Positions 3,509 to 42,936 of a DNA stretch of 43,624 nt are shown here, piece after piece. The notes under the pieces are model-generated. The model saw only the letters and a list, made by a program, of their open reading frames with translations, was not told where the DNA came from and searched no databases. Origin of the DNA: a virus (Duplodnaviria > Heunggongvirae > Uroviricota > Caudoviricetes); IMG/VR virus record IMGVR_UViG_2869924733_000007, positions 1 through 43,624 of that record. One strand, given 5' to 3'. Made by a program: the position numbers and the translations under genes. Each line of letters opens with the position of its first letter. Within the stretch, counting starts at the first letter, position 1.

Positions 3509-3902
3509 GAACACCTCCATTAATATTTTCCCAAAATGCACTTGGTTTTACACCGGAATATTCTCATCGTATCCTGCTTGTTGCGTTTCGTTTTGTGTTT
3601 GTGGATCCGGGAATGCATATTCAACGCCTTCCAGTTCAATCCATAGTGCATTACGACCAGCTTTGATTGTCGGCCAGTCCATACCTTTGATTCTTTCCCA
3701 TGAGCGGGAGGTGAATGTTTTTTCCAGCAAATCAGCTTTTGCGCGTTTGGCGTCGTTACTGGTGCCCCCATGGTGCTTGTTGAGCAACTCGATAATTTCA
3801 TCAAGTGCGATTTCTTTTGCACGCTTTTCTTTTAGCCATGAGGTAGCCTGAGTTTAACGGACACTCCTTCCTGAAATAGAATGGCATCAGAAGGAGCTAA
3901 TA

Positions 3903-4165
3903 ATGAGCAGAAAAACCCAACGTTACTCTAAAGAGTTCAAAGCCGAAGCTGTCAGAACGGTTCTTGAAAATCAACTTTCGATCAGTGAAGGCGCTTCCCG
4001 ATTATCCCTTCCTGAAGGCACTTTAGGACAATGGGTTACCGCCGCCAGAAAAGGGCTCGGTACTCCTGGTTCCCGCACGGTGGCTGAACTGGAATCTGAA
4101 ATTCTGCAACTGCGTAAGGCGTTAAATGAAGCTCGCCTTGAGCGAGATATATTAAAAAAAGCAAC
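3903..4165 (+). CDS. IS600 OrfA (IS3-family HTH), 3' end displaced by the nested IS30
   Basis: MSRKTQRYSKEFKAEAVRTVLENQ...; after removing IS30 the frame continues KKATAYFAQESLKNTR*; IS30 lies 4 nt after the A-AAA-AAA slippery run. Confidence 0.8.
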
Positions 4166-5386
4166 TGTAGATTCAATTGGTCAACGCAACAGTTATGTGA
4201 AAACATGGGGTTGCGGAGGTTTTTTGAATGAGACGAACATTTACAGCAGAGGAAAAAGCCTCTGTTTTTGAACTATGGAAGAACGGAACAGGCTTCAGTG
4301 AAATAGCGAATATCCTGGGTTCAAAACCCGGAACGATCTTCACTATGTTAAGGGATACTGGCGGCATAAAACCCCATGAGCGTAAGCGGGCTGTAGCTCA
4401 CCTGACACTGTCTGAGCGCGAGGAGATACGAGCTGGTTTGTCAGCCAAAATGAGCATTCGTGCGATAGCTACTGCGCTGAATCGCAGTCCTTCGACGATC
4501 TCACGTGAAGTTCAGCGTAATCGGGGCAGACGCTATTACAAAGCTGTTGATGCTAATAACCGAGCCAACAGAATGGCGAAAAGGCCAAAACCGTGCTTAC
4601 TGGATCAAAATTTACCATTGCGAAAGCTTGTTCTGGAAAAGCTGGAGATGAAATGGTCTCCAGAGCAAATATCAGGATGGTTAAGGCGAACAAAACCACG
4701 TCAAAAAACGCTGCGAATATCACCTGAGACAATTTATAAAACGCTGTACTTTCGTAGCCGTGAAGCGCTACACCACCTGAATATACAGCATCTGCGACGG
4801 TCGCATAGCCTTCGCCATGGCAGGCGTCATACCCGCAAAGGCGAAAGAGGTACGATTAACATAGTGAACGGAACACCAATTCACGAACGTTCCCGAAATA
4901 TCGATAACAGACGCTCTCTGGGGCATTGGGAGGGCGATTTAGTCTCAGGTACAAAAAACTCTCATATAGCCACACTTGTAGACCGAAAATCACGTTATAC
5001 GATCATCCTTAGACTCAGGGGCAAAGATTCTGTCTCAGTAAATCAGGCTCTTACCGACAAATTCCTGAGTTTACCGTCAGAACTCAGAAAATCACTGACA
5101 TGGGACAGAGGAATGGAACTGGCCAGACATCTAGAATTTACTGTCAGCACCGGCGTTAAAGTTTACTTCTGCGATCCTCAGAGTCCTTGGCAGCGGGGAA
5201 CAAATGAGAACACAAATGGGCTAATTCGGCAGTACTTTCCTAAAAAGACATGTCTTGCCCAATATACTCAACATGAACTAGATCTGGTTGCTGCTCAGCT
5301 AAACAACAGACCGAGAAAGACACTGAAGTTCAAAACACCGAAAGAGATAATTGAAAGGGGTGTTGCATTGACAGATTGAATCTACA
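4166..5386 (+). mobile_element. IS30 (1221 bp) nested in IS600, 2-bp TSD AC
   Basis: Ends tgtagattcaattggtcaacgcaac ... gcattgacagattgaatctaca; AC at 4164..4165 and 5387..5388. Confidence 0.85.
4228..5379 (+). CDS. IS30 transposase (383 aa, DDE, HWEGDL motif)
   Basis: MRRTFTAEEKASVFELWKNGTGFSEIANILG... 383 aa; identical in all five copies. Confidence 0.9.
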   Translation: MRRTFTAEEKASVFELWKNGTGFSEIANILGSKPGTIFTMLRDTGGIKPHERKRAVAHLTLSEREEIRAGLSAKMSIRAIATALNRSPSTISREVQRNRGRRYYKAVDANNRANRMAKRPKPCLLDQNLPLRKLVLEKLEMKWSPEQISGWLRRTKPRQKTLRISPETIYKTLYFRSREALHHLNIQHLRRSHSLRHGRRHTRKGERGTINIVNGTPIHERSRNIDNRRSLGHWEGDLVSGTKNSHIATLVDRKSRYTIILRLRGKDSVSVNQALTDKFLSLPSELRKSLTWDRGMELARHLEFTVSTGVKVYFCDPQSPWQRGTNENTNGLIRQYFPKKTCLAQYTQHELDLVAAQLNNRPRKTLKFKTPKEIIERGVALTD

Positions 5387-5463
5387 ACAGCGTATTTTGC
5401 ACAGGAGTCGCTGAAAAATACGCGTTAATCGAACAATGGCGACAACAATTTCCCATTGAAGCG

Positions 5464-6282
5464 ATGTGTCAGGTATTTGGTGTATCCAGGAGCGGTTATT
5501 ACAACCGGGTACAGCATGAACCCTCAGACAGAAAACAAAGTGATGAGCGGCTAAAACTGGAGATTAAGGTGGCACATATCCGCACTCGCGAAACATATGG
5601 AACCCGGCGGCTCCAGACGGAGCTGGCAGAGAATGGCATCATCGTTGGTCGTGACCGACTGGCACGTCTTCGTAAGGAGCTAAGGCTACGCTGTAAGCAG
5701 AAACGCAAGTTCAGAGCGACTACGAACCCGAACCACAATCTGCCAGTTGCGCCAAATCTGCTGAACCAGACGTTCGCTCCTACAGCACCAAATCAGGTCT
5801 GGGTGGCGGACCTGACGTATGTTGCCACACAGGAGGGATGGTTGTACCTCGCTGGCATCAAAGATGTTTATACGTGCGAAATTGTCGGCTACGCCATGGG
5901 AGAGCGCATGACAAAAGAGCTGACAGGTAAAGCCCTGTTTATGGCGCTCAGGAGCCAGCGCCCACCTGCCGGGCTAATCCACCACTCTGATCGAGGTTCA
6001 CAGTACTGCGCATACGATTACCGGGTCATACAGGAGCAGTTTGGTCTGAAAACATCAATGTCGCGTAAAGGTAACTGTTACGACAACGCTCCGATGGAAA
6101 GCTTCTGGGGAACGCTGAAAAATGAGAGCCTGAGCCACTATCGTTTTAATAACCGGGATGAAGCCATCTCAGTAATACGGGAATACATTGAGATTTTCTA
6201 CAATCGTCAGCGTCGTCACTCTCGTCTGGGGAATATCTCCCCGGCAGCCTTCAGGGAACAATATCATCAGATGGCTGCTTAA
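5464..6282 (+). CDS. IS600 OrfB (IS3-family integrase-core transposase domain)
   Basis: 272-aa ORF MCQVFGVSRSGYYN...; normally expressed as an OrfAB fusion by -1 frameshift. Confidence 0.8.
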   Translation: MCQVFGVSRSGYYNRVQHEPSDRKQSDERLKLEIKVAHIRTRETYGTRRLQTELAENGIIVGRDRLARLRKELRLRCKQKRKFRATTNPNHNLPVAPNLLNQTFAPTAPNQVWVADLTYVATQEGWLYLAGIKDVYTCEIVGYAMGERMTKELTGKALFMALRSQRPPAGLIHHSDRGSQYCAYDYRVIQEQFGLKTSMSRKGNCYDNAPMESFWGTLKNESLSHYRFNNRDEAISVIREYIEIFYNRQRRHSRLGNISPAAFREQYHQMAA

Positions 6283-41198: not shown

Positions 41199-41275
41199 CG
41201 CTTCAATGGGAAATTGTTGTCGCCATTGTTCGATTAACGCGTATTTTTCAGCGACTCCTGTGCAAAATACGCTGT

Positions 41276-42496
41276 TGTAGATTCAATCTGTCAATGCAAC
41301 ACCCCTTTCAATTATCTCTTTCGGTGTTTTGAACTTCAGTGTCTTTCTCGGTCTGTTGTTTAGCTGAGCAGCAACCAGATCTAGTTCATGTTGAGTATAT
41401 TGGGCAAGACATGTCTTTTTAGGAAAGTACTGCCGAATTAGCCCATTTGTGTTCTCATTTGTTCCCCGCTGCCAAGGACTCTGAGGATCGCAGAAGTAAA
41501 CTTTAACGCCGGTGCTGACAGTAAATTCTAGATGTCTGGCCAGTTCCATTCCTCTGTCCCATGTCAGTGATTTTCTGAGTTCTGACGGTAAACTCAGGAA
41601 TTTGTCGGTAAGAGCCTGATTTACTGAGACAGAATCTTTGCCCCTGAGTCTAAGGATGATCGTATAACGTGATTTTCGGTCTACAAGTGTGGCTATATGA
41701 GAGTTTTTTGTACCTGAGACTAAATCGCCCTCCCAATGCCCCAGAGAGCGTCTGTTATCGATATTTCGGGAACGTTCGTGAATTGGTGTTCCGTTCACTA
41801 TGTTAATCGTACCTCTTTCGCCTTTGCGGGTATGACGCCTGCCATGGCGAAGGCTATGCGACCGTCGCAGATGCTGTATATTCAGGTGGTGTAGCGCTTC
41901 ACGGCTACGAAAGTACAGCGTTTTATAAATTGTCTCAGGTGATATTCGCAGCGTTTTTTGACGTGGTTTTGTTCGCCTTAACCATCCTGATATTTGCTCT
42001 GGAGACCATTTCATCTCCAGCTTTTCCAGAACAAGCTTTCGCAATGGTAAATTTTGATCCAGTAAGCACGGTTTTGGCCTTTTCGCCATTCTGTTGGCTC
42101 GGTTATTAGCATCAACAGCTTTGTAATAGCGTCTGCCCCGATTACGCTGAACTTCACGTGAGATCGTCGAAGGACTGCGATTCAGCGCAGTAGCTATCGC
42201 ACGAATGCTCATTTTGGCTGACAAACCAGCTCGTATCTCCTCGCGCTCAGACAGTGTCAGGTGAGCTACAGCCCGCTTACGCTCATGGGGTTTTATGCCG
42301 CCAGTATCCCTTAACATAGTGAAGATCGTTCCGGGTTTTGAACCCAGGATATTCGCTATTTCACTGAAGCCTGTTCCGTTCTTCCATAGTTCAAAAACAG
42401 AGGCTTTTTCCTCTGCTGTAAATGTTCGTCTCATTCAAAAAACCTCCGCAACCCCATGTTTTCACATAACTGTTGCGTTGACCAATTGAATCTACA
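41276..42496 (-). mobile_element. IS30 nested in IS600 (copy 5)
   Basis: Same offset as the other copies. Confidence 0.8.
41283..42434 (-). CDS. IS30 transposase
   Basis: 383-aa ORF identical to the other copies. Confidence 0.9.
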   Translation of the reverse strand: MRRTFTAEEKASVFELWKNGTGFSEIANILGSKPGTIFTMLRDTGGIKPHERKRAVAHLTLSEREEIRAGLSAKMSIRAIATALNRSPSTISREVQRNRGRRYYKAVDANNRANRMAKRPKPCLLDQNLPLRKLVLEKLEMKWSPEQISGWLRRTKPRQKTLRISPETIYKTLYFRSREALHHLNIQHLRRSHSLRHGRRHTRKGERGTINIVNGTPIHERSRNIDNRRSLGHWEGDLVSGTKNSHIATLVDRKSRYTIILRLRGKDSVSVNQALTDKFLSLPSELRKSLTWDRGMELARHLEFTVSTGVKVYFCDPQSPWQRGTNENTNGLIRQYFPKKTCLAQYTQHELDLVAAQLNNRPRKTLKFKTPKEIIERGVALTD

Positions 42497-42759
42497 GTTG
42501 CTTTTTTTAATATATCTCGCTCAAGGCGAGCTTCATTTAACGCCTTACGCAGTTGCAGAATTTCAGATTCCAGTTCAGCCACCGTGCGGGAACCAGGAGT
42601 ACCGAGCCCTTTTCTGGCGGCGGTAACCCATTGTCCTAAAGTGCCTTCAGGAAGGGATAATCGGGAAGCGCCTTCACTGATCGAAAATTGATTTTCAAGA
42701 ACCGTTCTGACAGCTTCGGCTTTGAACTCTTTAGAGTAACGTTGGGTTTTTCTGCTCAT
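42497..42759 (-). CDS. IS600 OrfA (3' end displaced by IS30)
   Basis: One substitution (L to F) relative to the other copies. Confidence 0.8.
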
Positions 42760-42936
42760 TATTAGCTCCTTCTGATGCCATTCTATTTCAGGAAGGAGTG
42801 TCCGTTAAACTCAGGCTACCTCAGGATGTTCGATAGCGCGAGTTTGAATGAAAATCAGCCGGAGATGATTTTACATAATTGCTACGGAATTATTCAATAC
42901 AGGAATTGCTTGCGTCTGCATGGATTGACCTGAAAT

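Follow-up and report, generated by a model that had tools for sequence, protein, structure and literature searches.

The stretch analysed here is the whole 43,624-bp virus record IMGVR_UViG_2869924733_000007 (Caudoviricetes; hereafter the window), which contained five copies of a nested insertion sequence (IS) composite, an IS30 lying within an IS600. The region corresponded to a decayed Rac-like prophage with integrase, recE, ydaV, trkG, terminase and portal genes, and also held a chromosomal ipaH gene, two IS630 copies and one IS4. Two stretches of the chromosome CP027027.1, a complete genome, were fetched separately and matched window positions 1-17081 and 28297-43624 with 100% identity; the plasmid NZ_CP027028.1, which accompanies this record, bears the label Shigella dysenteriae strain E670/74. 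When the DNA between the composites was compared with plasmids, phages and Escherichia coli genomes, it matched only Rac-like prophage, with 80-97% identity.

Each composite was 2487 bp long and consisted of a 1264-bp IS600 interrupted after its nt 327 by a 1221-bp IS30, with a 2-bp AC duplication on both sides of IS30 in all copies (4164-4165 and 5387-5388 in copy 1). Copy 1 (3839..6325; IS600 left part 3839-4165, IS30 4166-5386, IS600 right part 5389-6325) and copy 4 (33880..36366; left part 33880-34206, IS30 34207-35427, right part 35430-36366) were on the + strand. Copy 2 (15111..17597; right part 15111-16047, IS30 16050-17270, left part 17271-17597), copy 3 (22095..24581; right part 22095-23031, IS30 23034-24254, left part 24255-24581) and copy 5 (40337..42823; right part 40337-41273, IS30 41276-42496, left part 42497-42823) were on the - strand. 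Relative to copy 1, the four other copies carried 2-3 mismatches each. Four of the five composites were flanked by IS600-type 3-bp duplications (CCA, TAC, AAA and GGA for copies 1, 2, 3 and 5, respectively), a result with a chance probability of about 3e-7 at 1/64 for each site, while copy 4 had none (GTC/ACT). The positions and sizes of the five composites, the identities of the outer and inner elements and both types of duplication were as described in an earlier note on this DNA, made from the sequence alone. The 3-bp duplications indicate that IS600 ends were used at each of these sites, but they do not by themselves show that IS30 was on board at the time. Duplications of the same type were also found at other loci (AAC, CGC, GGA, TAT and GAC). 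A 14-bp extension of the repeat pair I1 past copies 1 and 2 was discarded, since the flanks agree there only partly and by chance.

With IS30 and one AC removed, the outer element measured 1264 bp with terminal inverted repeats, the size of IS600 in the IS3 family, and was 99.7-100% identical to copies named 'IS3-like element IS600 family transposase' by the Prokaryotic Genome Annotation Pipeline (PGAP). Pfam domains were HTH_Tnp_1 in OrfA, and HTH_21 and rve in OrfB. The inner element was IS30, 1221 bp long with terminal inverted repeats (TGTAGATTCAAT...), encoding a single 383-amino-acid transposase (HTH_38 and rve; 4228-5379 in copy 1), and was 99.8% identical to IS30A of E. coli K-12. In copy 1, the left half of the IS30 target (4140..4165, + strand; GAGCGAGATATATTAAAAAAAGCAAC) included the A-AAA-AAA frameshift heptamer of IS600 (4154-4160) and, after it, GCA and the duplicated AC, while the right half (5387..5412, + strand; ACAGCGTATTTTGCACAGGAGTCGCT) was a weaker, partly symmetric half-site (nGC..TTTT). 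The earlier note had located IS30 just past the heptamer, which was correct, with an offset of 4 nt, which in fact was 5 nt (3 nt plus the duplicated AC).

The insertion created a chimeric 122-residue OrfA' (3903..4271, + strand in copy 1), with 87 residues from IS600 OrfA and 35 from IS30. After a -1 slip at A-AAA-AAA, the reading frame of the composite reached a stop 23 codons into IS30, whereas the same slip in the reconstructed plain IS600 gave a full-length OrfAB. The composite therefore cannot make the fused OrfAB in cis, because the post-slip frame stops inside IS30, as the earlier note had argued. On the other side of IS30, the stop codon of its transposase (TGA, 5377-5379) was in frame with the downstream remainder of IS600 orfB (...VALTD*IYNSVFCTGVAEKY..., window 5377-5464). 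If this stop were read through, the IS30 transposase and IS600 OrfB would be joined into one protein. Such an in-frame arrangement has a one in three chance of arising by coincidence.

Of 5426 complete E. coli genomes, 997 contained the full composite (at least 80% covered in one place), as did 39 plasmid records, and the chimeric OrfA' was indexed in 14,496 blocks of a public assembly collection. In E. coli K-12 MG1655, the annotation gives 'IS600' (insM) for a 327-bp IS600 left part that adjoins IS30D. The composite structure is therefore already in databases, as it is widespread in E. coli and its junction is annotated in MG1655. The earlier note had raised the concern that the five copies could be assembly artefacts of collapsed repeats, to which mis-placed repeats may be added. 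No support for this was found, although CP026824.1 and PSSP01000002.1 (comparison loci L014 and L020, respectively; comparison loci are labelled Lnnn) are noisy assemblies. Given the 100% identity of the window to the two CP027027.1 stretches, and given that thousands of independent assemblies show this structure, as do the 997 complete E. coli genomes, an assembly artefact is hardly credible.

The central proposal of the earlier note was that IS30 entered one IS600 once, and that the 2487-bp composite was then copied repeatedly as a unit by OrfAB supplied in trans from an intact IS600. The internal junction and orientation shared by the five window copies, four of them with IS600-type duplications, are in line with it, and so are composites with perfect duplications elsewhere in E. 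coli (AAC, CGC, GGA and TAT) and an excess of one IS30 orientation. IS3-family transposases can moreover act in trans, as is known for IS911. The 3-bp duplications, though, are equally expected if IS600 moved alone, and the proposal implies that occupied sites alternate with empty ones and never with a bare IS600. Three loci were found at which one genome carried a plain IS600 and another the composite, with the same flanks.

At the copy-5 site, CP026824.1 had a plain IS600 with a single intact AC target and identical 40-bp flanks, whereas the composite was present in the window and at L018, L021 and L022, and a composite with inverted IS30 at L020. Allele 137T, private to this site, was carried both by window composite copy 5 and by the plain IS600 of CP026824.1. 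The second locus (L039, plain; L025, composite) had identical 60-bp flanks. At the third, an ISEc52/DUF4432 junction, E. coli NZ_CP062811.1 carried a plain IS600 annotated with an intact programmed frameshift and E. coli NZ_CP092452.1 carried the composite; the IS600 parts of the two showed no difference over 1264 positions, and the flanks 3 over 3000.

The IS600 and IS30 parts of the composites also differed in their divergence. In a table of single-nucleotide polymorphisms of the IS600 copies, built on a MAFFT alignment, the IS600 parts of the window varied at six sites (IS600 nt 137, 217, 445, 513, 700 and 1198), whereas the IS30 parts were 100% identical across all five copies. Six variable sites in 1264 bp against none in 1221 bp is poorly compatible with equal rates (p = 0.508^6 = 0.017). 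The earlier note had correctly reported an invariant IS30 within a varying IS600, but with three variable sites instead of six. The site pairs 217/445 and 445/1198 each showed all four haplotypes, thereby failing the four-gamete test, and alleles 445C, 217A and 137T were also present in plain IS600 copies. Copying as a unit predicts equal divergence and a single history for the inner and outer parts, while an identical IS30 in diverged IS600 copies is what secondary IS30 insertion predicts. Because the divergence is one-sided, the four-haplotype pairs are present and the alleles are common to plain IS600, the composites are not a clade that diverged after one nesting. Allele 169T, considered as a marker of E. 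coli composites that would hint at copying as a unit, was dropped as it was also found in plain E. coli IS600.

The companion plasmid NZ_CP027028.1 (L075-L077) provided further insertions at this position. It carried five IS30 copies, each with 0 mismatches to the window IS30 and all located at the same position; the host was IS600 itself (99.7% identical) or an IS600-like variant (approximately 93% identical). Three of these IS30 copies had the orientation seen in the window and two were inverted. IS30 divergence was thus 0%, against 7% for the host element. Variant-specific bases approached the IS30 ends to 12 nt on the right side and 26 nt on the left, which leaves no room for conversion tracts, and the plasmid copies must therefore be separate transposition events. 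Over the 192 kb read in strain E670/74 (window plus plasmid), all ten IS30 copies were at this site; the IS600 and IS600-like copies seen there numbered ten, all of them interrupted and none intact. Variant copies with IS30 were located at plasmid positions 34749-37235, 44507-46473, 59616-61426 and 144302-146622, several of them truncated, and the copy at 44507-46473 was a hybrid of a 99% IS600 left part and a 91% variant right part.

The inverted junction, in which the IS600 left part is joined to the right end of IS30, was found at L020, L024 and L031 as well as on the plasmid, and in 355 complete E. coli genomes. Such a junction requires its own insertion event, since recombination within IS30 cannot produce it. 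In the noisy L020 assembly, the sites of copies 4 and 5 (7193-9676 and 13624-16110) both carried IS30 inverted relative to the window. At L024 (9406-11216) and L026 (5855-7613), IS30 lay between two inverted IS600 left parts, which would result if IS30 mediated an inversion or a deletion between two copies of IS600.

Taken against these observations, copying of the composite as a unit is very unlikely to explain the five copies. It is mechanistically possible in trans, yet required by no observation: plain alleles of the same insertion exist at three loci, identical IS30 copies sit in hosts differing by 0.1-7%, the IS600 alleles of the composites are reticulate and common to plain copies, inverted junctions call for extra insertions in any case, and no intact IS600 that could act as helper was seen in the 192 kb of E670/74 sequence read. 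The composite does resemble trans-mobilised non-autonomous IS derivatives, such as those similar to miniature inverted-repeat transposable elements or IS-bounded compound transposons, in that it keeps the IS600 ends without a working transposase, and it could in principle be moved by an intact IS600; the plain alleles at the same loci and the unequal inner and outer divergence nevertheless argue against such an origin here.

A second alternative is that homologous recombination or gene conversion moved the IS30 tract from a composite into plain IS600 copies, or removed it from composites. This would account for the uniform orientation, the identical IS30 copies and the coexistence of plain and composite alleles, and exchange between IS600 copies did take place at some time, as seen from the four-gamete failures. 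Hybrids also exist, namely the plasmid copy with its 99% left and 91% right parts, and IS600-L/IS30/IS911-L' in K-12. On the plasmid, however, the spacing of 12 and 26 nt between IS30 and the variant bases is too short for RecA-type tracts, and in the window an identical IS30 is found with each of the four 217/445 haplotypes, so that every tract would have to end within about 110 bp on each side. Conversion cannot give rise to the inverted junctions, nor to the IS30 copies lodged at the homologous spot in IS911 and in a third element described below, and is unlikely as the source of the composites.

Hybrids in which different hosts shared one IS30 occurred at several loci (L060, K-12 4507125-4509801; L001, L027, L039, L041, L042 and L080). 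Their forms included IS911-L/IS30/IS600-L' (K-12 IS30D locus), IS911-L/IS30/IS600-R, third-element-L/IS30/IS911-R and IS600-L/IS30(inverted)/third-element-L'. Such structures imply that IS30 copies residing in different IS3-family hosts recombined with one another or underwent rearrangements mediated by IS30. Many E. coli plasmids, including those of the enterotoxigenic strains E24377A and 1392/75, carried IS30 and the IS600 right part with the IS600 left part mostly or wholly gone (matches to composite positions 308-2487, 311-2487, 316-2487 and 328-2487), which suggests deletions adjacent to IS30. At L007, L008, L010 and L011 (E. coli, beside a Peptidase_S6 autotransporter gene), the IS30 of the composite was itself interrupted in some strains by an IS66-type element, IS3-family elements and a group II intron, giving three nesting levels at one locus.

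The IS30 target in IS600 was TTAAAAAAAGCA[AC]AGCGTATTTT, i.e. the frameshift A-run followed by GC, the 2 bp that are duplicated (AC, IS600 nt 326-327), and nGC with a T-rich stretch. IS30 occupied the homologous spot of IS911 in K-12 (TTAAAAAAGGCT[AC]CGCGC; GAAATATTAAAAAAGGCT[AC]CGCGC for IS911A), and was also found there, in both orientations, in IS911-like elements and in a third IS3-family element, named only 'IS3 family transposase' by PGAP, with the target ACATATTAAAAAAAGCC[GC]GGCGTAC. In a sample of viral contigs collected without bias through an IS30-internal pattern, 26 of 37 IS30 copies lay at an IS3-family frameshift window. Insertions at one dinucleotide, in both orientations and in diverged hosts, as expected of independent events, were thus encountered on the plasmid, in the 355 E. 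coli genomes, in IS911 and in the third element.

The aligned IS30 targets suggested half-sites of the type ARAAAGGCN on each side of the 2-bp duplication. The A-run and GC of an IS3-family frameshift signal form a good half-site. An empirical weight matrix was derived from a small set of three unrelated IS30 targets (six half-sites). Among the 1238 positions scored in IS600 it placed the real site at the top (9.6 bits, with 7.4 for the next), and it did likewise in IS911 (17.7, with 7.4 for the next). Once the IS911 and third-element targets were added to the matrix, the IS600 site scored 17.8, the next best position in IS600 only 4.5, and nowhere in the 31 kb of IS-free window sequence was the score of the IS600 site reached. 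As a ranking of sequences, this supports a target preference rather than proving it.

These results point to a sequence of events in which IS600 probably spread first, and IS30 then entered, repeatedly and independently, one preferred site of the resident copies. At each of the five window sites, IS600 would have arrived as an ordinary autonomous 1264-bp element, leaving 3-bp duplications, and IS30 would have followed. A later burst of IS30 transposition would then have filled the hot spot in the resident IS600 copies; that it was recent is indicated by the identity of all ten IS30 copies read in E670/74. Each insertion would have occurred at the same AC since the local sequence is a preferred IS30 target, and would have split orfA from orfB, abolished OrfAB and inactivated that IS600. 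The preference itself would be a property of the IS30 transposase and not an effect of selection. On balance, a more general reading is slightly favoured, whereby IS30 has a strong natural preference for the sequence just 3' of the frameshift heptamer of several IS3-family elements (IS600, IS911 and relatives) and would so act as a recurrent site-specific inactivator of them; in E670/74 this may be near saturation, which would shut down IS600.

In this account copy 4, the composite without a 3-bp duplication, would have lost it through recombination between two IS600 copies. Copy 4 fused the phage portal region directly to a truncated tail-fibre gene, and its flanks recurred in four related strains (L014, L018, L020 and L021). 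Recombination between two IS600 copies probably removed both the duplication and the prophage genes lying between the portal and the tail fibre. The genes deleted at copy 4 (33880-36366) would be the head and tail genes of the prophage.

Several points weigh against repeated independent insertion. All five window composites carry IS30 in one orientation, and in viral contigs the 'same' orientation outnumbered the 'inverted' one by 22 to 4; this excess reflects either an intrinsic bias of IS30 at an asymmetric target or a partial spread by descent, through copying of the composite as a unit or through conversion. In the window copies, the IS600 polymorphisms nearest to IS30 are 110 and 118 bp away, a spacing compatible with short gene-conversion tracts at these copies. 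The plain and composite alleles were compared between genomes without polarisation on a strain phylogeny, and one of the plain alleles comes from the indel-rich assembly CP026824.1 (23 gaps in 17 kb). Lastly, the three-target matrix is built from no more than six half-sites, and with it seven positions of the IS-free 31 kb of the window score as high without carrying IS30.

Known targets of IS30 are positions adjacent to its own ends and near-palindromic 'hot spot' sequences, and 2 bp are duplicated on insertion (PMC9333248, citing Olasz et al. 1998). The insertions described here resemble the hot-spot targeting reported by Olasz, Kiss and co-workers (PMC9333248) in their 2-bp duplication at one precise, partly palindromic sequence, in the use of both orientations at one site, and in the identity of the IS30 copies, as from copy-out-paste-in bursts. 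They differ in that the site lies inside another IS, directly 3' of the frameshift heptamer, in at least three IS3-family elements. For MG1655, the legend of Fig. 3 in PMC9333248 lists IS911A interrupted by IS30A, and an IS911B/IS30D/IS600 fragment. The first of these corresponds to the homologous position, 334-335 bp into IS911 and right after A-AAA-AAG, with an AC duplication, and the second has the 327-bp IS600 left part abutting IS30D through the same junction as in the window. The K-12 cases are however single rearranged relics, whereas E670/74 has ten of the ten IS30 copies read at the site, five of them within 43 kb. No description of an IS30 preference for the frameshift window of several IS3-family elements, nor of IS30 in every IS600 examined of one Shigella strain, was found in the searchable literature.

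Concerning the surroundings of the composites, copy 1 truncated an AAA_24 phage gene (6323-7081, - strand), whose stop codon is supplied by the IS600 end, and the copy-2 site was empty in a related prophage (L003) and in Shigella sonnei loci. Between composites 4 and 5 (36367-40336) lay the ipaH gene (38297-40012, - strand; NEL and LRR_TTSS domains) and the truncated tail-fibre gene. As composites 4 and 5 are mutually inverted, the 4-kb segment between them could invert by recombination. Two identical inverted IS630-type elements encoding a 343-amino-acid DDE_3 transposase (1703-2862 and 20253-21412) and one IS4-type element (approximately 18220-19522) completed the set of IS elements, which together made up about 16 kb of the 43.6-kb window, i.e. 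more than one third.

Where the inner element is strongly target-specific, a nested junction may recur unchanged at many loci without one nesting having been followed by transposition of the unit. For IS-based annotation and typing of Shigella and E. coli, IS600::IS30 represents mostly dead IS600, and whether a particular IS600 carries IS30, and in which orientation, is a marker that changes quickly. A preference for IS3-family frameshift windows, if true, would provide a clear example from nature of one IS systematically disabling another family and would offer a defined natural target for the study of IS30 target choice; IS600 may then have been shut down in a lineage otherwise shaped by IS expansion.

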